64,000 bases of DNA from an uncultured Bacillales bacterium (GCA_946410555.1 CAMKAT010000001.1:47108-111107), one strand, 5' to 3'; positions 9,761 through 29,868 are shown, counted from the stretch's first letter. Notes: generated by a model not told the origin, from the letters alone. A program made the numbers and translations.

Positions 9761-12169
9761 ATGGCAAACTTACAAGATCATTTTAAATTTGATTATAAGA
9801 AAATACTTCCTAATGTAAGTAATATCATTCAAGGTAAAAAATATAGAATTACAGTACTTAGTGAACTTTTAGTTAGACTAGAGTATTCAGAAACTGGTGA
9901 ATTTGAAGATAGACCAACTGAACTTGTTCAAACTAGAAAGTTTCCTAATATTAAATTTGATAAAAAAGAAGATAATAATTACTTATATATAACAACTAGT
10001 TATTTCAAACTTTATTATAGAAAAGAATTTCCTTTCTTAGGAACAAAAATGTCACCTGAACAAAATTTAAAAATAGAATTAACTAATACTGATAAGTATT
10101 GGTATTTTAATCATCCTGAAGTAAGAAACTTTGGAACTGTTGGTTATTCACTTGAAGGTAAGATGGGTTCTCCAAAGTATGAAAAAGGATTATACTCAGT
10201 TGATGGATTTGTATCTTTAGATGACTCTAAGAGTTTAATATTTAATGAAGATGGTTCTTTAGGTAAAAGAACTGATACAAGAATAGATACTTATGTATTT
10301 ATGTATCGAAGAGACTTTGGAGCTTGTCTTAAAGATTACTTTACTTTAACAGGTTATCCTCCATTAATACCAAGATATTCTCTAGGTGTATGGTGGAATA
10401 GAAATACAGAATATAATTCAAAAGGTATAGAAAAGTTAGTACATAAATTTACTAAACATAGAATACCTGTATCAATAATCATGTTAGGAGATCATTGGCA
10501 TCGTAAAAATCCTAAGATGCAATCTGGATTATCTTTTGATGAAACATTATTCAAGAGACCTAAGAGAATGACAGACTTCCTTCATGGAAGAAACATCAGA
10601 CTTGCACTTAAAATTAATCCAAACGAAGGTATATCTCCAAAAGAAGATTACTATTTACCGTTCAAAGCAGCCAGTGGTGCCGAAGGCAATGGTGTTATTC
10701 CATTTAATGTATTTAATGTAAATATATTATCTGCATACTTTGATTATTTTATTCATCCATTAATGAATTATGGAGTAGACTTCTTCTGGCTTGATTATAA
10801 TAATAAAAATGATTTAGCTACTTTAAGAGCGTTAACTCATTATCATTTTGATGATTTTAAACAAATCGTTAACAGGAGAGGTATGACTTTCTCAAGAAAT
10901 GGTATGATTGCAGCTCATAAATACCCAATTCATTACACTGGTGAAACAGATGTAAATTGGAAGAACTTAGAAGCAATGCCACATTATAATGCAGCGGCTT
11001 CAAATATAGGTATTTCATGGATATCAAATGATATTGGTGGATTCAAAAATGGAACTGAAGATGGAGAGTTATTCTCAAGGTTTGTTCAATTTGGATGTTT
11101 CTCACCAATACTTAGACTTTCAGCTGATGAAGGTGAGTATTATAAAAGAGAACCATGGAAATGGGATATTCAAACTCAAGCAATTGTATCTAGATATTTA
11201 AAACTTAGACACGAGCTTATACCTTATTTATATAGTGAAGCATATAGATATCATAAAGTTGGTATGCCACTAGTACAACCACTTTATTATCAAAACCCAG
11301 AAATCTATGATGAACCACTTTATAGAAATGAATATATATTTGGTTCTTCATTATTAGTAGCTCCAATAACTACTAAAGATGATCCATTAATGAATAGAGC
11401 AGTTGTTAAACTTGCGCTACCTGATGGAGTTTGGTATGACTTTACTAATGGAAAAAAGTTTACTGGCGGAAGAAGATATACAACATTCTATAAAGATGAA
11501 GATTATCCAGTATTTGCTAAGGCAGGAACAATTCTTCCTTTAGCAATTCTTGATGAGAATGATTTAAATAATACAGATGCACCAAGAGCAATGGAAATCC
11601 AAGCATTCCCTGGAGATTCTTGTACATATGAGTTATATGAGGATGATGGTGTATCATCATTATATGAAAAAGATTTCTTTATACTTACTGAAATCGATTA
11701 TACATATCAAAAAAATAATGTAACAATTTCTATAAGACCTGTTGCAGGTAAGAGTGGTATTATTCCTCCTTATAGAAGTTATCGTTTAAGATTTAGAAAT
11801 ATGAATGAACCTAATGAAATATCAGCAATGAGTGGTTCAGATAAAGTAACTATCACAGATGCTTATGTAGATGATAATGACTTTGTAGTAGAGCTACCTC
11901 CATTATCAACATTAAAGCAAATTACAGTTAACTGTAAGGGTGATGATTTAGAGTTAAATCAAGAGAGACTTATTAACTATGATATTGAATCTATTCTTAG
12001 CGATTTACCAATACCTACGAAAGTTAAGAACATGATAGGTGATATTCTTCTTAAAGATACATCAGTTCAAGAAAAACGTATCGCAGTACGTAAGTTATCT
12101 AGAATTGGATTAAATCAAAAATATGTTAACTTATTCTTAAAACTTCTTGAATATATGGCAGAAGTGTAA
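9761..12169 (+). CDS. Glycoside hydrolase family 31 (alpha-glucosidase or alpha-xylosidase like)
   Basis: GH31-like signatures FFWLDYN (nucleophile region) and SNDIGGF (acid/base region). Start moved to the ATG at 9761, which follows RBS AGGGTGA; the track start is a GTG inside that RBS. Confidence 0.75.
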   Translation: MANLQDHFKFDYKKILPNVSNIIQGKKYRITVLSELLVRLEYSETGEFEDRPTELVQTRKFPNIKFDKKEDNNYLYITTSYFKLYYRKEFPFLGTKMSPEQNLKIELTNTDKYWYFNHPEVRNFGTVGYSLEGKMGSPKYEKGLYSVDGFVSLDDSKSLIFNEDGSLGKRTDTRIDTYVFMYRRDFGACLKDYFTLTGYPPLIPRYSLGVWWNRNTEYNSKGIEKLVHKFTKHRIPVSIIMLGDHWHRKNPKMQSGLSFDETLFKRPKRMTDFLHGRNIRLALKINPNEGISPKEDYYLPFKAASGAEGNGVIPFNVFNVNILSAYFDYFIHPLMNYGVDFFWLDYNNKNDLATLRALTHYHFDDFKQIVNRRGMTFSRNGMIAAHKYPIHYTGETDVNWKNLEAMPHYNAAASNIGISWISNDIGGFKNGTEDGELFSRFVQFGCFSPILRLSADEGEYYKREPWKWDIQTQAIVSRYLKLRHELIPYLYSEAYRYHKVGMPLVQPLYYQNPEIYDEPLYRNEYIFGSSLLVAPITTKDDPLMNRAVVKLALPDGVWYDFTNGKKFTGGRRYTTFYKDEDYPVFAKAGTILPLAILDENDLNNTDAPRAMEIQAFPGDSCTYELYEDDGVSSLYEKDFFILTEIDYTYQKNNVTISIRPVAGKSGIIPPYRSYRLRFRNMNEPNEISAMSGSDKVTITDAYVDDNDFVVELPPLSTLKQITVNCKGDDLELNQERLINYDIESILSDLPIPTKVKNMIGDILLKDTSVQEKRIAVRKLSRIGLNQKYVNLFLKLLEYMAEV

Positions 12170-21633: not shown

Positions 21634-21792
21634 ATGGCAATAAAAGTAAATAAAAAAGAAGTTGATGTTGAAACTGAAATCATGAATAAGTTAAGTGAAT
21701 ATGGACTTTCAATTGACTTTGGAGATGATGATTCAGAAGAAAAAGAAACTGAAAATAAAAATGAAGAAAAAGAAAAGGAAGCAAATAACTAA
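21634..21792 (+). CDS. Small acidic protein (52 aa), not in the ORF track
   Basis: RBS AAGAGG 8 nt upstream; sequence MAIKVNKKEVDVETEIMNKLSEYGLSIDFGDDDSEEKETENKNEEKEKEANN; followed by a terminator hairpin (GGAAGCAAA...TTTGCTCC, then T6). Confidence 0.4.
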   Translation: MAIKVNKKEVDVETEIMNKLSEYGLSIDFGDDDSEEKETENKNEEKEKEANN

Positions 21793-23161: not shown

Positions 23162-24085
23162 ATGAAACAACCAATTTATAAAGATGAATCAAAACTTAGT
23201 TATGAATATTTAGAAGCAGTTAAAGACACTGATTTTAAAAAGATGGTAGCAAGAATTAAAGCTAGTGATGATCTTGCTAAGAAATATACATCTAAGATTC
23301 AAAAGTGTGTTGAAGAGTTAAAAACTTGTTCTAAATGTAAAGGTTTAAGTGAATGCAAGAATGCTTGTCCAGGACTTGTTTTATATCCAAGGGTAGATGG
23401 TAATATGATTACTTTTGAATATCATGAATGCAAATACTTAAAAGAAAAGAAAGAAGAGGAAGCACTTAAGAAAAAACGTGAAGAAGAGAATACTGCTTAC
23501 TTCTATAATGAACCATTACAAATTAAAAATGCATCAATGGCTGAAATTGATTTAACTGATAAGAATAGATTAAAAGCTATTAAATGGATTAAAGACTTTT
23601 ATAAAAAATATAATAAAGATAAACATATCAAAGGAGTATATTTACATGGCTCTTTTGGATCAGGTAAAACATATATTTTAGCAGCACTTTTAAATGAACT
23701 TGCTAAGAATGGTACATCAATAGTAATTATGTATTATCCACAATTATTAAGAAAATTAAAAGAAACATTTAATAAGAGTGATGATAATAGTTACAGTGAT
23801 ACTATGAATAAACTTATGACTACTGATATTCTTTTAATTGATGATATCGGAGCAGAAAACATTACTCCTTGGAGTAGAGATGAAGTCTTAGGTACAATCG
23901 TACAATATAGAATGGAAGAATCTCTACCAACATTCTTTACTTCTAATTTAACTATTGATGAATTAGAAGCTCATTTATCAGAAACAAAGAACTCTGTAGA
24001 TTTAGTTAAAGCAAAAAGAATTATTGAAAGAATTAAAACATTAACTGATGATATTGAATTAGTTAGTAAAAATCGCAGGGCCTAG
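23162..24085 (+). CDS. dnaI: Primosomal protein DnaI (AAA+ helicase loader)
   Basis: N-terminal Cys-rich zinc domain (CSKCKGLSECKNACPG), Walker A GSFGSGKTY, Walker B LLIDDIG, 307 aa. Confidence 0.85.
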   Translation: MKQPIYKDESKLSYEYLEAVKDTDFKKMVARIKASDDLAKKYTSKIQKCVEELKTCSKCKGLSECKNACPGLVLYPRVDGNMITFEYHECKYLKEKKEEEALKKKREEENTAYFYNEPLQIKNASMAEIDLTDKNRLKAIKWIKDFYKKYNKDKHIKGVYLHGSFGSGKTYILAALLNELAKNGTSIVIMYYPQLLRKLKETFNKSDDNSYSDTMNKLMTTDILLIDDIGAENITPWSRDEVLGTIVQYRMEESLPTFFTSNLTIDELEAHLSETKNSVDLVKAKRIIERIKTLTDDIELVSKNRRA

Positions 24086-24138: not shown

Positions 24139-25368
24139 ATGAAAAAAATAAGAAATATGGTTTTAGTATTTGCTTTATTCTTTACATGTATGGTTAGTGC
24201 AAAAGCTAATATTTATAGTACACGTAATGATTGTATAGCAGATGCTGGAGGTAACACTAATCTTTCTACTGTTTCAACTAAAACAACAGTTAGATCATGT
24301 GTACAAAACTATTGTAATGCTCAACTTGGAACTTATGATACATATATGGTTAAAGAAGTAGTTGCTTATGGAACATGCGCAAATGGAAATAGAAATCCAT
24401 ATAAGACTAAAGTTTTTGGATATAACAGAACAGGTGCATGTGCAACACCACAACGATTAGCTGAAATAGTATATACTAATATGGATATTATATATGATTG
24501 TACTAGAACTTCTAATGGTAGTGCTTATAGTCAATCAGGTAATACTACTAAGAAAACTACTACAGGAAGTGGTGGAGGTAATGCTACAAGTCCAACTACT
24601 AAACCAACTACCAAAAGAACTGGTCCAACTACAACTGCTAAGATAGGTGGTAATGATACAACTACAACAACAAGAGTTACAACTCCAGGTGAAAATACTA
24701 CTGAAACAACTACAACAACTAGAGTATTAACAAATGATGCGTCCATTAAGAAAATTGTTATTAATGATAAATTTGATTTAGGATATAAAGAAGAAACTAA
24801 AGAATATGCAATCAAAGTTCCTTATAGTTTAAATGACTTTGATGTATATGTAGAAACTAGTGACCCATATGCTAAAGTAGAAGTTTATGGAACTAACTCA
24901 GTTTCATCTCTTGGTGGAGTTATTGATATTGTTGTTACAAGTAGTGATGAATCAACAACTAATCAAGTTAAAATAAATGTATCAAGATATACTAAAGAAG
25001 AAGGAGATTGTTCTCTAGTTGATATTTATATTAAAAACTATAGTTTAGATTTTTCATCTACTAAAGAACAATATACTTTAAACTTAACTAATAAAGATAG
25101 ATTTTTAGAGATTGAAGCAACTCCAAGTAATCCATCTTCAATTTATACAATCAAAGGAAATGAAAAATTAAAGAATAATAGTAAGATTGAAATCTTAGTA
25201 GAAGCAGTTGATGGTACAACGTGTACTTATGTAATTACTACTAAGAAATCATCTAAATTATTACTTTATTTACTAATTGCTGTAGTCGTAGGTGTAGGTT
25301 TATACTTTGCTATTAAGAAACTTATTGAACTTGCAACTAAAGGTAAAAATAGATATAGATATGAATAG
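24139..25368 (+). CDS. Surface protein with a Cys-rich N-domain, Thr-rich linker, two Ig/cadherin-like beta-sandwich repeats and a C-terminal TM anchor
   Basis: Signal peptide; eight Cys in the first 110 aa; poly-T/G linker; C-terminal LLLYLLIAVVVGVGLYFAIKK anchor. Confidence 0.5.
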   Translation: MKKIRNMVLVFALFFTCMVSAKANIYSTRNDCIADAGGNTNLSTVSTKTTVRSCVQNYCNAQLGTYDTYMVKEVVAYGTCANGNRNPYKTKVFGYNRTGACATPQRLAEIVYTNMDIIYDCTRTSNGSAYSQSGNTTKKTTTGSGGGNATSPTTKPTTKRTGPTTTAKIGGNDTTTTTRVTTPGENTTETTTTTRVLTNDASIKKIVINDKFDLGYKEETKEYAIKVPYSLNDFDVYVETSDPYAKVEVYGTNSVSSLGGVIDIVVTSSDESTTNQVKINVSRYTKEEGDCSLVDIYIKNYSLDFSSTKEQYTLNLTNKDRFLEIEATPSNPSSIYTIKGNEKLKNNSKIEILVEAVDGTTCTYVITTKKSSKLLLYLLIAVVVGVGLYFAIKKLIELATKGKNRYRYE

Positions 25369-25395
25369 ACATTTAATATGTCTATTTTATTTTGC
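25365..25395 (+). terminator. Rho-independent terminator
   Basis: TAGACAT-TTAAT-ATGTCTA followed by a T-rich tract. Confidence 0.55.
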
Positions 25396-25450
25396 TCTCT
25401 TGTTAATAGATTTAATTATAGTTATAATTATATTAAAGTAGGGTGATAGA

Positions 25451-25969
25451 ATGAGAGATGCAATTGCAGGAGCATGGTTATACTCATTAATACTTGTATT
25501 TGTAGTTATACTAGTAGCTTTTATTGCAATATCAATAAATTATAATAAAACATATAAATTAAAAACAACTGTGGTTAATATAATTGAAGAGTATCAAGGA
25601 GTTAACCCTGAGAGTGTTAAAAAAGTCGGAGGATTCTTAGCAGCTAATGCTTTTCGAACAGAAAGATATTGTAATAAAGTTGTTAATAAAGGTGAAAGAT
25701 ATATTGGTATAACTGATGGTAAGTTAAGTCCTATGTATGAAAGTGGTTCTCCTGCTGAGAAAACTGCTAAACCACAACAAGTATGTATAAGTAGAGACGC
25801 TCATACTTCAAATTATGATGGTAAGTCAGCATATACAGATTATTACTATAATATATATATGTCTTTTGATTTCTCATTACCAGTATTCGGAGACATATTT
25901 AAGTTCTCAGTTAACGGTTCAACAAATGCTATATACTATCCAGTAGATACTAATAACTGGGGTAATTAA
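25451..25969 (+). CDS. TadE/TadF-like pseudopilin candidate (N-terminal TM, C-terminal YPVD motif), paralogue A
   Basis: MRDAIAGAWLYSLILVFVVILVAF N-terminus; paralogous to 26383..26955 (shared MR-D/E-AI-G-W start and a C-terminal YPVD). Confidence 0.4.
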   Translation: MRDAIAGAWLYSLILVFVVILVAFIAISINYNKTYKLKTTVVNIIEEYQGVNPESVKKVGGFLAANAFRTERYCNKVVNKGERYIGITDGKLSPMYESGSPAEKTAKPQQVCISRDAHTSNYDGKSAYTDYYYNIYMSFDFSLPVFGDIFKFSVNGSTNAIYYPVDTNNWGN

Positions 25970-26056
25970 AAAAAGTGTAAAAACTTTTTACAATTTTATT
26001 GAATATAGAAAGTAAATATATTATGATATACATATAATAAGGAGGAGATTGATAAA

Positions 26057-26353
26057 ATGAAAGACGCAACAGGCGAATTAAGTATGACAGCAGTTGCAGT
26101 AGTAGCCATCGCTGCAATCGCATTATTATTTCAACAATTTGTATGGCCAGTAATTCAAAGAAACATTCAAACCAATGCATATTGTTCACAAACACAATCA
26201 TGTGAATGTGGTAAAGGTAAAAAAGTTGATGCAGAAGTTGGAACAATTACTTCAAATTCAGATAAAACTTGTTCATGCATTTATCTTGATGACGCAGGTA
26301 AAACTCATGGAGTATTATGTCCAAACAATGCTACTGACGCAGCATCTAAATAA
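26057..26353 (+). CDS. Flp-like mini-pilin candidate (98 aa) with six C-terminal cysteines
   Basis: Strong RBS AAGGAGG. MKDATG-ELSMTAVAVVAIAAIALLF resembles Flp prepilins (G, then a hydrophobic helix) but lacks the canonical E5/Y6. Cysteines at 44, 49, 51, 72, 74 and 88. Confidence 0.4.
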   Translation: MKDATGELSMTAVAVVAIAAIALLFQQFVWPVIQRNIQTNAYCSQTQSCECGKGKKVDAEVGTITSNSDKTCSCIYLDDAGKTHGVLCPNNATDAASK

Positions 26354-26382
26354 TAAATTCTAAAAATTAAAGGAAAAATTAA

Positions 26383-26955
26383 ATGAGAGAGGCTATAGGA
26401 GCGACATGGATTTTCGGAATTGTTATTGTATTTATAGTATTATTTACTGGATACTTAGCATTTTCAGTTAATTATGCCAAAGCCTTTACAATTAAAGATA
26501 AAATAGTTGATGTTTTAGAAAAATATAATGGGCCTGGTAAGAGAAACTCAAGTAGTTTTACCGGGCCTGTTTTAGATGAAATTAATGCTGGTATGAAAAG
26601 TATTAGATATAGTTCTAAAGGTAGTTGTTATAACGTAGGACTAGAAGTTTTTGAAAATGATAAAACTAAATTACAAAATAGATCAAAAACTATCATGGGT
26701 GTTACTAATGCAACTGCTGAAGTATATGCTAATAGTGCATTAACATTTAAACAAAGTAAAAACTATCATTATTGTGTAATTAGACAACAACAAGATAAAC
26801 TTGATGAGAAAAGTATAGGATTTTCAAATTATTTTGTAGCAACATTCTTTAGTATGCATGTTGAGATAATCAATTTACATTTGAATTTCTTTGTTACAGG
26901 ACAAACTAAAAATATTAGTTATCCAGTAGATGGTTTCTTATCATTTGAGGAGTGA
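26383..26955 (+). CDS. TadE/TadF-like pseudopilin candidate, paralogue B
   Basis: MREAIGATWIFGIVIVFIVLF N-terminus; C-terminal ISYPVDGF. Confidence 0.4.
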   Translation: MREAIGATWIFGIVIVFIVLFTGYLAFSVNYAKAFTIKDKIVDVLEKYNGPGKRNSSSFTGPVLDEINAGMKSIRYSSKGSCYNVGLEVFENDKTKLQNRSKTIMGVTNATAEVYANSALTFKQSKNYHYCVIRQQQDKLDEKSIGFSNYFVATFFSMHVEIINLHLNFFVTGQTKNISYPVDGFLSFEE

Positions 26956-27977
26956 ATAGAATGAACGTAATAGTTACAAATCAAAATAAAGCATTATTAG
27001 ATCAATTAAATGTAGATATAATTAAAAAAATCGAAGGTGAATATGAAGTATCTGAATTATTATCTAAGTTCGTTAATTTACAATTTGATAAATTAATAAT
27101 TGATATTACTTCAATTAAGAATTATACAGATAATGCAGTAATGACTTCATTTGCAAAATCAGTTGATCCAAATAGAGTTATCATTTTACTTAATGATAAT
27201 CCAACTGTTAATACAAGACCTTATATAGTTAATTTGATTAATAATGGAATTTATAATTTTTCTAGAAATATCGAAGGAGTAAAATACTTATATAATACTC
27301 CAAATACACTAGCTAGTGTACAATCTATTTTAAACCCACCTGTAAAGACTGAAAGTGCACCAACTGTAAATGCAATAGTTAATACTCAACCAACTACTAC
27401 TGAAAGTAGTAATGAAGTATATGCAAATAATAATTCCAATTTAAGAATCCCAATATTTGGAAAAAAGATTATTGGTTTATCCAATACGACAATGCATGCA
27501 GGTGCATCAACATTAACAAACATGATGGTAAGACAACTTAATAATAAAGGAATTCCTGCTATTGGAATCGAAATGAATAGACAAGACTTAATCTATTATA
27601 GAAGTGATAAATTATTCTCAGCTATGAGTAGATTAGACTTAGAAAGAGTTGTTAAAGATCACAACGATGCTGCAGCTATAATCATTGATTTAAATGATTT
27701 CCCTGAAGCAGATAAATATTGTAATTCAATTATTTATCTAGTTGAACCATCATTCATTAGATTAACTAAATGCATAAGAAGAAATAAAAATGCATTTGTT
27801 GAAAAGAAAAATGAAAAGGTAGTTTTAAATATGAGTTTTGTTTCAGATGATGAATTATATGATTTTGAAATTGAAACAGGAGTAAAAGTATTTGATAATA
27901 TTCCACCATTAAATGATAGAGATCAAGATGCTGGAGAAATAAACGAATTCTTACGTAAATTAGGATTTAATATTTAA
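26952..27977 (+). CDS. TadZ/CpaE-like protein: receiver-like N-domain plus a ParA/MinD-like domain with a degenerate P-loop
   Basis: N-terminal beta-alpha repeats resemble a REC fold but lack an evident phospho-acceptor. The second domain reads KKIIGLSNTTMHAGASTLT where ParA/MinD has KGGVGKTT, and a Walker-B-like AAIIIDLND follows. Confidence 0.45.
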   Translation: MNRMNVIVTNQNKALLDQLNVDIIKKIEGEYEVSELLSKFVNLQFDKLIIDITSIKNYTDNAVMTSFAKSVDPNRVIILLNDNPTVNTRPYIVNLINNGIYNFSRNIEGVKYLYNTPNTLASVQSILNPPVKTESAPTVNAIVNTQPTTTESSNEVYANNNSNLRIPIFGKKIIGLSNTTMHAGASTLTNMMVRQLNNKGIPAIGIEMNRQDLIYYRSDKLFSAMSRLDLERVVKDHNDAAAIIIDLNDFPEADKYCNSIIYLVEPSFIRLTKCIRRNKNAFVEKKNEKVVLNMSFVSDDELYDFEIETGVKVFDNIPPLNDRDQDAGEINEFLRKLGFNI

Positions 27978-28045
27978 CAGTCAAATAATTAATTTTAGTT
28001 GACATTACTTAAAGCAATAATTTATAATATCTTTAGAAAAGAGGA

Positions 28046-28399
28046 ATGAATATGTTATTAGCGAGCGAATCCATTGGTACTTTTTGTAGCAAGACTGCAG
28101 GTTTATTACAATATGTTGGATATGCATTAACAATTTTCAAAATTGCTATTCCACTAATCATCATTATCTTTGGTATGATGGATTTTGGTAAAGCTGTTGT
28201 ATCTGAAAAAGATGAAGACGTTAAAAAACAAGCAGTAAAATTATTAAGAAGAGCAATCGCTGGTGTAATTATTTTCTTTATTCCAACATTAGTAATTTGG
28301 ATTTTCGAAACTGTTAATGATTACAGTAGTGAAGCTGGACAATTTAATACTTGCAAAGAATGTTTATTACATCCAGGTAGTTGTCCTGCAGGAGAATAA
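28046..28399 (+). CDS. Small 2-3 TM membrane protein with a C-terminal Cys motif (CKECLLHPGSCPAGE)
   Basis: RBS AAGAGGAATGA; 117 aa; VirB2/TrbC-like size and topology (speculative). Confidence 0.35.
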   Translation: MNMLLASESIGTFCSKTAGLLQYVGYALTIFKIAIPLIIIIFGMMDFGKAVVSEKDEDVKKQAVKLLRRAIAGVIIFFIPTLVIWIFETVNDYSSEAGQFNTCKECLLHPGSCPAGE

Positions 28400-28437: not shown

Positions 28438-28487
28438 GTCTAAATTTAAAAGTATGTTATAATCTCATACGTGAAAGGGTGCTTTTT

Positions 28488-29117
28488 ATGAGATTAAGAA
28501 GAGTTAAAAATGCTTTAGAAACTGTTGAAAACAGTAAATATATAATATTAAAACCGGAGAGTCACAAGGGTAAGTTTAATGAAATATTTGGCAATAATAA
28601 TCCTATTTACTTAGAAATAGGTATGGGTAAGGGAGATTTTATTATTCAAAATGCTATTAATCATCCTGAGAATAATTACATTGGTTTAGAAAAATATGAA
28701 TCAGTACAAATGAGAGCTGTTCAAAAGTTAGAATGTTTAGATATTCCTAACTTAAGACTTATTCATATGGATGCTGAAAACTTAAATGAAGTTTTTGATA
28801 AAGAAATAGACACTATTTTCTTAAACTTCTCAGATCCATGGCCTAAGAATAGACATGCAAAAAGAAGACTTACTAGTTCATTTTTCTTAAATATTTATGA
28901 TTCTACATTCAAAGGTAAACCTCATATTATTCAAAAAACAGATAATATTGGTTTATTTGCATCATCAATTGTATCTCTTAGTGAATATGGATATACTATT
29001 CATAATTGTTCACTTGATTTACATAATGAAGATATGGAAAATTTCGAAACTGAATATGAACATAAATTCTCATCTAAGGGTCAAAAAATTAATTATTTAG
29101 ATGCTGTAAAAGAATAG
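28488..29117 (+). CDS. trmB: tRNA (guanine46-N7)-methyltransferase
   Basis: SAM-binding motif LEIGMGKGDF and TrmB-type FSDPWPK motif; start at the ATG at 28488, because the track GTG at 28479 lies inside the RBS. Confidence 0.85.
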   Translation: MRLRRVKNALETVENSKYIILKPESHKGKFNEIFGNNNPIYLEIGMGKGDFIIQNAINHPENNYIGLEKYESVQMRAVQKLECLDIPNLRLIHMDAENLNEVFDKEIDTIFLNFSDPWPKNRHAKRRLTSSFFLNIYDSTFKGKPHIIQKTDNIGLFASSIVSLSEYGYTIHNCSLDLHNEDMENFETEYEHKFSSKGQKINYLDAVKE

Positions 29118-29235: not shown

Positions 29236-29868
29236 ATGAGAAAAAAACTTGTATTAATCCTAACTATGTTAATATTAACAACAGGTTGTGTAAACATTCA
29301 AAATGCTTCTATTGAAGAAATAGTAAATGAAGTATTAAACAGTAAAGAGACTGGCTACAATCATACTAATGATGGGTTTAAATATTATTTACCATCAGGT
29401 ATTGATGTGATATATAAAGATGAGTATAATGAAATACTAAAGAGTAAAGGATATACTTACTATTTATATGTTGATTTAGTTAAATATATTAACAATAGTG
29501 TAGATACAGTTAAGGAAGAAAAAGATATTTATTATAGTCATGTATTTAAGAAAGATGATAACGAAGGTATAGTAAATGTTTATTTTAAAGAAAAGAATTC
29601 TTACTTAGTTGTGCTTGAATATAACCACGCTAAAGTAGAAGTTTATGTTAAAAAGCAAGATATTAATGATGCTGTAGCTAATGCAATAATTATTACTTCA
29701 TCTATTAATTATAATAAGAATATAATTCAAAATATGATAGGTAAAGACTTAACTACAGTTGAAGAAGAAGTAAACGTATTTGAAATCAAAGATGATAGCT
29801 CATCTACATTACAAATTGATGATACATATCATGAAGATGAGAAATACGATAGTGAGATTATTAGATAA
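29236..29868 (+). CDS. Lipoprotein of unknown function
   Basis: Lipobox LILTTGC at residues 14-20. Confidence 0.55.
   Translation: MRKKLVLILTMLILTTGCVNIQNASIEEIVNEVLNSKETGYNHTNDGFKYYLPSGIDVIYKDEYNEILKSKGYTYYLYVDLVKYINNSVDTVKEEKDIYYSHVFKKDDNEGIVNVYFKEKNSYLVVLEYNHAKVEVYVKKQDINDAVANAIIITSSINYNKNIIQNMIGKDLTTVEEEVNVFEIKDDSSSTLQIDDTYHEDEKYDSEIIR

Follow-up and report, generated by a model that had tools for sequence, protein, structure and literature searches.

What does a block of Tad-like genes represent when no secretion ATPase is encoded beside it? The question is raised by a 64,000-nucleotide stretch of DNA from an uncultured Bacillales bacterium (GCA_946410555.1 CAMKAT010000001.1:47108-111107), called the window throughout and always meaning this whole stretch. 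An earlier reading made from the sequence alone (hereafter the sequence-only reading) had noticed six co-directional genes between dnaI and trmB, and the six open reading frames (ORFs), here named A to F, are present at exactly the coordinates it gave. All are intact and on the + strand, between dnaI (23162-24085; NF006505, E-value 8e-76) and trmB (28479-29117; NF001080, E-value 1e-48). The DNA of the window is AT-rich (~27% G+C) and translates cleanly with genetic code 11; the gaps between the six genes measure 5-87 nt, with no terminator-like site within the block. Our analysis indicates that the locus is real, conserved and uncharacterised, and that it is not an ATPase-less minimal machine. 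It is probably the pilin and accessory module of a strongly diverged, CpaF-driven Tad-type (type IVc-like) pilus, evolutionarily coupled to a chromosomal, monoderm type IV secretion system (T4SS) resembling the mating-pair-formation class FATA (MPF-FATA), in a lineage of uncultured, small-genome gut bacteria that are Bacilli/Mollicutes-like. The features of the locus are as follows.

24139-25368, + strand: A, surface-anchored protein, 409 aa, with a PF12733 match, a signal peptide and a transmembrane (TM) helix
25451-25969, + strand: B, pilin-like protein and minor-pilin candidate, 172 aa, paralogue of D
26057-26353, + strand: C, candidate major pilin, 98 aa, with a near-invariant N-terminus and a hydrophobic helix
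26383-26955, + strand: D, pilin-like protein and minor-pilin candidate, 190 aa, paralogue of B, with a structure model
26961-27977, + strand: E, TadZ/CpaE-like two-domain protein, 338 aa, with a structure model
27999-28028, + strand: perfect sigma-70 consensus (TTGACA, 18 nt spacer, TATAAT), 18 nt upstream of F
28046-28399, + strand: F, VirB2-like T4SS pilin homologue, 117 aa, with family-level PF18895 and NF045849 matches

The window holds no motor. Phmmer searches of every frame of the 64 kb found no homologue of a CpaF-like ATPase, a platform-position protein, CpaB, DUF5411, TrbL or VirB4, in agreement with the sequence-only reading, which had reported neither a TadA/CpaF ATPase nor a TadB/C platform at the locus. 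It had also seen no TadV peptidase, and a regular-expression scan of the window for a membrane protein of the A24 type (GxGD[KR]), a crude test, found none. Scans against Pfam and NCBIfam at an E-value of 1 or below gave zero matches for B, C, D and E; only A (Cadherin-like) and, weakly, F were matched.

The relatives of the locus give it a context. One genome per GTDB species was scanned, the E family was found in 148 species, and loci were fetched from 80 of them, 32 in a close and 48 in a distant clade. The E homologues (n = 296) come from metagenome-assembled genomes (MAGs) of uncultured Bacilli, Mollicutes, Tenericutes and Erysipelotrichales of gut and rumen; one member of the family, Ca. 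Faecisoma, is filed under Mycoplasmatota. Conservation of the gene neighbourhood, which the sequence-only reading had named as a way to check the locus, is evident in both clades. In the close clade the block is syntenic with the window in 32 species (E identity 49-72%), with trmB downstream in 28 of the 32 loci and, in 25, dnaI upstream and A at the 5' end of the pilin block. Because the block is syntenic in 32 related GTDB species, its arrangement is not due to chance. The 48 species of the distant clade (E identity 34-39%) carry the C/B/D-E-F block in a long co-directional supercluster, the 5' part of which consists of DUF5411 (PF17424, E-values 1e-47 to 1e-51), a CpaB/RcpC-like SAF protein, a T2SSE ATPase (PF00437, E-values 1e-26 to 1e-29; NCBI names its close-clade orthologues 'CpaF family protein') and two polytopic membrane proteins, followed by C and/or B/D. 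E, F and further F-domain genes, a TrbL/VirB6-like gene, a TcpE/VirB3-like gene, a split VirB4 and an M23 peptidoglycan hydrolase form the 3' part. The cpaF block (DUF5411, the cpaB/rcpC-like gene, T2SSE and the two membrane genes) lies directly upstream in 40/48 distant loci, TrbL is adjacent in 34/48 and VirB4 in 27/48, and both ATPases are found in one fetched locus in 23/48.

These flanks also bear on the idea that the locus is an unrelated envelope or division/segregation module, made of a ParA/MinD-like protein and bitopic membrane proteins next to dnaB-dnaI, which resembles a pilus locus only superficially. Its place beside dnaB/dnaI, the ParA/MinD fold of E and the lack of matches to Tad hidden Markov models (HMMs) would suit such a module. 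However, the dnaI neighbourhood is limited to one sub-clade, and the block has other flanks in the 48 other species, 40 of which carry it in a cpaF cluster, so that this explanation is hardly plausible to us.

Intermediate arrangements occur within the close clade. In one of the fetched loci (L024) the order is cpaB-cpaB-cpaF-two membrane genes-B-C-D-E-F-murJ-trmB, and in three others (L008, L013, L102) it is dnaI-A-...-E-F-TrbL-...-VirB4. A query with the CpaF of L024 returned more than 120 clusters at 67-89% identity. Around the cpaF genes of these clusters lies a separate housekeeping locus without pilin genes, in the order ftsW, Metallophos(-), Rce1-like(-), cpaB, cpaB-like, cpaF, two membrane genes, sufC-sufBD-sufS-nifU, serS and ftsK. 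Two species arranged like the window carry the cpaB-cpaB-cpaF block at another place in their genomes: the E protein of L028 (MCH5167342.1, J1F35_05555) and CpaF MCH5167159.1 are 183 accessions apart under the same label, 'Erysipelotrichales bacterium', and the records of the E protein of L025 (MBO5475308.1) and of CpaF MBO5475952.1 both give a longest contig of 675,510 bp. The metagenome ERZ28655052 contains both a window-like E locus (scaffold_645) and a cpaF locus (scaffold_207). A metagenome scan with the VirB4 of L013 showed that the T4SS module, too, can stand alone, and in the closest relatives of this VirB4 (81-87% identity) the T4SS follows infC-rpmI-rplT and has no pilin block upstream. 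In the close sub-clade the system is spread over up to three chromosomal sites, namely the pilin block, cpaF by suf, and the T4SS after rplT.

The genes that flank the cpaF and T4SS loci of the relatives (suf, serS, ftsK and infC-rpmI-rplT) are not in the 64-kb window, and the absence of a motor from the window therefore says nothing about its loss; we infer that the window's own genome has a CpaF locus as well. The sequence-only reading had offered machinery encoded elsewhere as one possibility, and this fits both the distant relatives, which keep everything in one cluster, and the two window-like species with a cpaF block at another site. Its description of the module as reduced or minimal does not stand, the system being dispersed instead, with the cpaF block at a second site in sibling genomes. 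One could still view the window locus as what is left of an ancestral Tad/T4SS island, decaying or domesticated, orphaned once its motors were lost or moved and no longer forming a filament, as the lack of an ATPase in the window and the splitting of the supercluster in the close clade might suggest. We regard this as quite unlikely: all six ORFs are intact, their order, length and key motifs are kept across 32 species at the E identities given above, the sibling genomes retain an intact cpaF block that is highly conserved over its many clusters, and the presence of an identical D in multiple samples argues for a stable gene.

Protein E shows the architecture expected of a partner of such a motor. 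In its AlphaFold2 model (mean confidence, pLDDT, of 79) residues 1-127 form a flavodoxin/receiver-like domain, a disordered and variable linker occupies about residues 130-167, and the C-terminal domain has the ParA/MinD fold of SIMIBI NTPases. As modelled, E has the TadZ/CpaE architecture, in which a receiver-like N-domain is joined to a ParA/MinD-type domain. TadZ/CpaE proteins partner with CpaF/TadA, and in known systems TadZ docks or positions TadA. The same 40 distant-clade loci, and L024 as well, encode E and cpaF in one cluster, which the window does not. Its P-loop reads I-I-G-x-x-N-x-T-x-x-[AS]-G-[AS]-[ST]-[ST] in 82/82 members, the lysine of GK[ST] being replaced by Ala or Ser, and because this lysine is missing E is probably a non-hydrolysing, non-catalytic scaffold. 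The sequence-only reading had called E a TadZ/CpaE-like protein with a receiver and a degenerate ParA domain; both domains are recovered in the model and the P-loop is indeed degenerate, but E matches no CpaE, ParA or CbiA HMM, nor any other Pfam or NCBIfam family, and a search of PDB sequences with the E-family profile returned none. A GTG at 26952, which overlaps the stop codon of D, is a possible start of the E gene; the ATG at 26961, giving 338 aa, is most likely the start, since homologues and public gene calls begin there.

Protein C is very small and has a hydrophobic N-terminal helix that is conserved, and its gene stands beside the cpaF block in distant relatives, though not in the window; it is directly 3' of the tadC-position gene in L043, L101, L109, L131 and L139. 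The window protein begins MKDATGELSMTAVAVVAIAAIALLF; its six Cys are residues 43, 49, 51, 72, 74 and 88. Across the family (proteins of 50-109 aa) the N-terminus is near-invariant, MK[DE]A[TSA]GE[LA][SN][ML]T followed by the hydrophobic helix, with A4, G6, E7 and T11 as invariant columns, and the part beyond the helix is hypervariable and Cys-rich. In one relative the C gene is present in three tandem copies whose N-terminal halves are identical and whose C-terminal halves diverge (L007 8705-9466).

B and D are paralogous (BLASTP E-value 2e-18, 21% identity). B begins MRDAIAGAW and ends ..YYPVD, D begins MREAIGATW and ends ..SYPVD; in B the MRDAIAG signature is followed by a TM helix, and the family alignment shows two conserved Cys. 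The B/D family has 1498 representatives (E-value of 1e-3 or below, 50% identity level) and no matching Pfam family. The structure model of D combines a 45-residue N-terminal helix with an alpha/beta head, a "lollipop" shape reminiscent of a pilin. The signature M-[KR]-[ED]-[AS]-x-G with its hydrophobic helix is common to C, B/D and DUF5411, and in hhalign comparisons B/D aligns in register with DUF5411 and with C over residues 1-20 only. Major and minor pilins of one type IV filament system usually share just their N-terminal region, and we take the shared signature of C, B/D and DUF5411 as the typical major/minor pilin relation within one machine.

Established pilin models did not recognise these proteins. 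TadE (PF07811) was matched by 0/83 members of the B/D family and PF13400 by two, at an E-value of 0.078; Flp_Fap (PF04964) was matched by 0/24 members of the C family and, at an E-value of 1 or below, not by the window C. The Flp processing motif G/XXXXEY is absent from C, where MKDATG-ELSMTAV has Glu at +1 and Thr at +5, invariant across the C family. The type IVa/Com prepilin motif G-F-T-L-x-E, with Glu at +5, is absent from B, C and D, and none of them has an N_methyl match. The sequence-only reading had compared B and D with TadE/TadF and C with a Flp-like mini-pilin. Its description holds as to the paralogy, the N-terminal helices and the YPVD ends of B and D, and the MKDATG start, the six Cys and the small size of C; membership of the TadE and Flp families, and the G/XXXXEY motif, do not hold. 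A competence (ComG) pseudopilus and a sporulation operon were also considered and were rejected on grounds of motif and context.

The crude A24 peptidase expression (GxGD[KR]) found no match over the window and loci L001-L083. A gene for an Rce1-like (CPBP, PF02517) intramembrane protease lies divergently beside cpaB at the separate cpaF locus (L084 7568-8224; L086 7586-8311), and, because no A24 prepilin peptidase was seen, it is a speculative candidate for the enzyme that processes the pilins. As for the two polytopic proteins encoded after the ATPase, profile searches of both families against PDB sequences returned nothing and hhalign found no paralogy between the TadB-like and the TadC-like position family past the N-terminus; 'platform' is a label given to them by gene position only.

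Protein A is a candidate membrane-anchored, cadherin-like adhesin of the module. Its features are a signal peptide, an N-terminal part with seven Cys, a linker rich in Thr/Ser (46% T/S over residues 130-200), a C-terminal TM helix and a basic tail, and it matches Cadherin-like PF12733 (E-value 1.2e-6) over two stretches, corresponding to two beta-sandwich domains. The sequence-only reading had described it as a Cys-rich surface protein with cadherin-like repeats and a TM anchor, and each of these traits was seen.

Protein F points to a second machine. It is a two-TM hairpin (a topology read from the sequence) with a conserved N-terminal Cys, C14, and a C-terminal CxxC...C motif; it ends CKECLLHPGSCP. 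The window protein scored below the cut-off against both PF18895 T4SS_pilin (E-value 0.034, 14.7 bits, cut-off 26.6) and NF045849 (E-value 0.038), but 17/33 members of its family match PF18895 (best E-value 8.5e-6) and 11/33 match NF045849 (Mbov_0395 pilin-like). In relatives, though not in the window, F-domain genes lie immediately upstream of the TrbL/VirB6-like gene, before TcpE-VirB4. Judged by these family-level matches, F is probably a distant VirB2-like T4SS pilin. This kinship had escaped the sequence-only reading, which was right about a 117-aa membrane protein with a CxxC...CP tail. The sigma-70 site before F is the only 12/12 match in a promoter scan in which promoter-like sites overall were at chance level for AT-rich DNA (44 found against 53.5 expected); it is a possible internal promoter, from which F may be transcribed separately from A-E. 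In relatives (L055 11531-13309; L056 11013-16540; L062 11039-17477) the F domain also anchors large secreted proteins of 270-590 aa, which contain Cys, to the membrane by their C-terminus, and F-domain genes stand in arrays, with at most six to a locus.

The T4SS genes of the relatives match MMCAP2_0566, the Mbov_0397 VirB4 (NF045975, E-value 1.5e-102) and TcpE. In relatives the block is thereby joined physically to a complete T4SS of monoderm type, a link that lay beyond the view of the sequence-only reading. A VirD4 coupling protein (T4SS-DNA_transf PF02534, E-value 9e-55) and an NlpC/P60 hydrolase are annotated in the T4SS modules L090 and L128, VirD4 being seen only in T4SS loci of closer relatives. 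The VirB4 homologue consists of three consecutive ORFs of ~105 aa (TcpE/VirB3-like), ~190 aa and ~597 aa (L013 5523-8194; L055 16284-18908), which jointly cover residues 5-891 of the 894-aa mycoplasma integrative and conjugative element (ICE) ATPase model NF045975. In the fetched flanks, the annotated or scanned genes included no integrase and no relaxase, and a mobile ICE was rejected, the locus being syntenic in a housekeeping neighbourhood.

With a T4SS so often adjacent, B, C, D and E might be accessory parts of the T4SS, such as mating-channel or surface structures, in which case their adjacency to cpaF would reflect two separate machines travelling together. F, a probable T4SS-type pilin, always follows E, and in four loci headed by A (L095, L097, L102, L104) the order A-F-C-B-E-F runs directly into TrbL...VirB4, with no cpaF in the 2-5 kb of upstream DNA examined. 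Conversely, in L050, L051, L059 and L070 the order cpaF-...-B/D-E-F is followed by no T4SS gene (<1 kb examined downstream in L050, ~7-10 kb in the others), and T4SS modules without B, C, D or E exist (L089, L090, L103, L128). The architecture of E is that of TadZ/CpaE, a partner of CpaF/TadA in known systems, and the build of C, B and D is that of type IV-filament pilins and differs from known parts of monoderm T4SSs. We consider it unlikely that these genes belong to the T4SS.

A Tad-type pilus module with a T4SS-type neighbour accommodates these results, and a model can be proposed on this basis. C would be polymerised as the major pilin by the CpaF-like motor and a membrane platform, and the putative minor pilins B and D would prime the fibre or cap it. 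E would be a ParA-type scaffold without catalytic activity, docking or positioning the motor in the way that TadZ serves TadA, and A would give adhesion. The motor would comprise the CpaF-like ATPase, the two polytopic tadB/tadC-position proteins and the CpaB-like proteins, encoded at a second housekeeping site by the suf operon. F would belong to the T4SS side as its VirB2-like pilin, and a third site, after rplT, could house the T4SS core (VirB6-like, TcpE/VirB3-like, VirB4, M23 and NlpC/P60 hydrolases, and VirD4). The system probably serves to contact cells or substrates and, coupled to this, to transfer DNA or proteins or take them up.

What is observed is gene content, homology, synteny, folds and, in sibling genomes, the cpaF locus; the roles of individual genes, the formation of a filament and its biological output are inferred from them. 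Several points weigh against the proposal. No HMM ties B, C, D and E to the TadE, Flp_Fap or CpaE/ParA families, and the proteins lack both the Flp motif G/XXXXEY and a Glu at +5. The window and the fetched loci scanned (L001-L083, crude regular expression) showed no prepilin peptidase. The two 'platform' proteins show no detectable similarity to T2SSF, TadB or TadC. Finally, the cpaF locus in the window's own genome and the assembly of a filament are both extrapolations.

Comparison with known systems places the module near the Tad/Flp type IVc pili, such as the tad locus of A. actinomycetemcomitans, cpa of Caulobacter and tad of Bifidobacterium. Shared with them are a CpaF/TadA-type T2SSE ATPase whose gene is followed by two membrane genes, a CpaB/RcpC-like protein, a TadZ/CpaE-like receiver-plus-ParA protein, a major pilin of very small size whose hydrophobic N-terminus is conserved, and larger pilin-like proteins that bear the N-terminal signature of the major pilin. 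In contrast to those systems, there is no HMM match here to Flp, TadE/F, TadB/C or CpaE and no TadV/CpaA peptidase was seen; the pilins have M-[KR]-[ED]-[AS]-x-G, and a leader no longer than six residues, instead of G/XXXXEY; the P-loop of E has no lysine; the pilin genes follow the platform genes; and the clade of the window has the system divided between two or more chromosomal sites.

Divergent Tad-like clusters have been predicted in gut Clostridia, one with CpaF, a PilC/GspF-like protein and DUF5411 (Miller et al. 2022, PMC9523054) and one known as the TANB77 pilus cluster (PMC11680825). Like the present system, they come from uncultured gut Firmicutes and combine CpaF with pilin-like proteins that only context, topology and fold reveal; DUF5411 (PF17424) is found both in the PMC9523054 system and in the distant-clade loci here. 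The present loci differ from both in coming from Bacilli/Mollicutes-like MAGs, in having other B/D, C and E families and in their split organisation, and the coupling to a T4SS with a VirB2-like pilin is in neither PMC9523054 nor PMC11680825.

On the T4SS side, F resembles the mycoplasma ICE core (Mbov_0395 pilin-like protein, MMCAP2_0566, Mbov_0397 VirB4) through PF18895 and NF045849, and its neighbours in relatives match that core as well. Patescibacteria have chromosomal, mostly relaxase-less, MPF-FATA-like T4SSs with arrays of VirB2-like pilins (10.1101/2025.01.22.634366); the loci studied here are likewise chromosomal and by housekeeping genes, have F-domain arrays of up to six and show no relaxase in the fetched flanks. 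Unlike in monoderm MPF-FATA T4SSs, the VirB2-like gene here comes after a pilin block of Tad type and a TadZ-like gene, the F gene of the window is apart from any VirB4 or VirB6, and the VirB4 of the relatives is made of three ORFs, against the single Mbov_0397.

The IncI1 plasmid R64, a case also cited in 10.1101/2025.01.22.634366, encodes both a T4SS and a type IVb thin pilus, and the pilus stabilises mating in liquid. R64 resembles the present system in encoding a type IV-filament pilus alongside a DNA-transfer T4SS, and in R64 the two cooperate; however, R64 is a diderm plasmid with a relaxase and oriT, its pilus is type IVb rather than Tad-type, and the subunits are not homologous. The Tad-like pilus and the relaxase-less monoderm T4SS could form one composite, chromosomally fixed apparatus of these gut bacteria with reduced genomes, with E and F as a bridge and a fibre of 'leaderless' or minimally processed pilins made without a classical peptidase, used for contact-dependent acquisition of DNA or nutrients as proposed for Patescibacteria. 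This is a tentative idea, to which we assign a rather low probability.

Literature searches on CpaF with VirB4 in Firmicutes/Erysipelotrichales found nothing. Going by our literature searches, four aspects appear undescribed: the families of B/D, C and E, the consistent physical linkage between a Tad-type module and a monoderm T4SS carrying VirB2-like pilins, the division of the system among housekeeping sites, and the unusual pilin N-terminus without an evident peptidase. To our knowledge, monoderm T4SSs are generally said to be without VirB2-like pilins. No curated model exists for the B/D, C or E family, although B/D alone has ~1500 representatives at 50% identity, and the families are conserved in more than 100 uncultured gut and rumen species with genomes of ~1-1.5 Mb. 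Six 'hypothetical proteins' are thereby turned into a testable model, that of the subunit half of a Tad-type pilus linked to a chromosomal T4SS with VirB2-like pilins. A system of this kind can be scattered over two or three housekeeping sites, and cluster-based detectors (TXSScan, CONJScan) would therefore miss it. If the pilus and the T4SS act together, these Bacilli would resemble Patescibacteria in relying on surface filaments and a relaxase-less T4SS for a dependent lifestyle.

The surroundings of the block hold further conserved genes. In many relatives a MurJ/Polysacc_synt-type flippase gene, absent from the window, lies between F and trmB (L001 11615-13264; L169 11707-13341), and L169 also has a small Cse60-like ORF there, which the window lacks too. 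The neighbours in L169, from a sister species, include matches to the sporulation families CotE (2273-2779) and Spore_Cse60 (11529-11696), unexpected for small-genome, Mollicutes-like Bacilli. Between rnj and dnaB the window has a very acidic 52-aa ORF of no family (21634-21792), whose position is kept in relatives (L001 4731-4904; L002 4675-4833). Just 3' of trmB lies a predicted 210-aa lipoprotein (29236-29868), likewise of no family, which occupies the same place in 28/32 close-clade loci.

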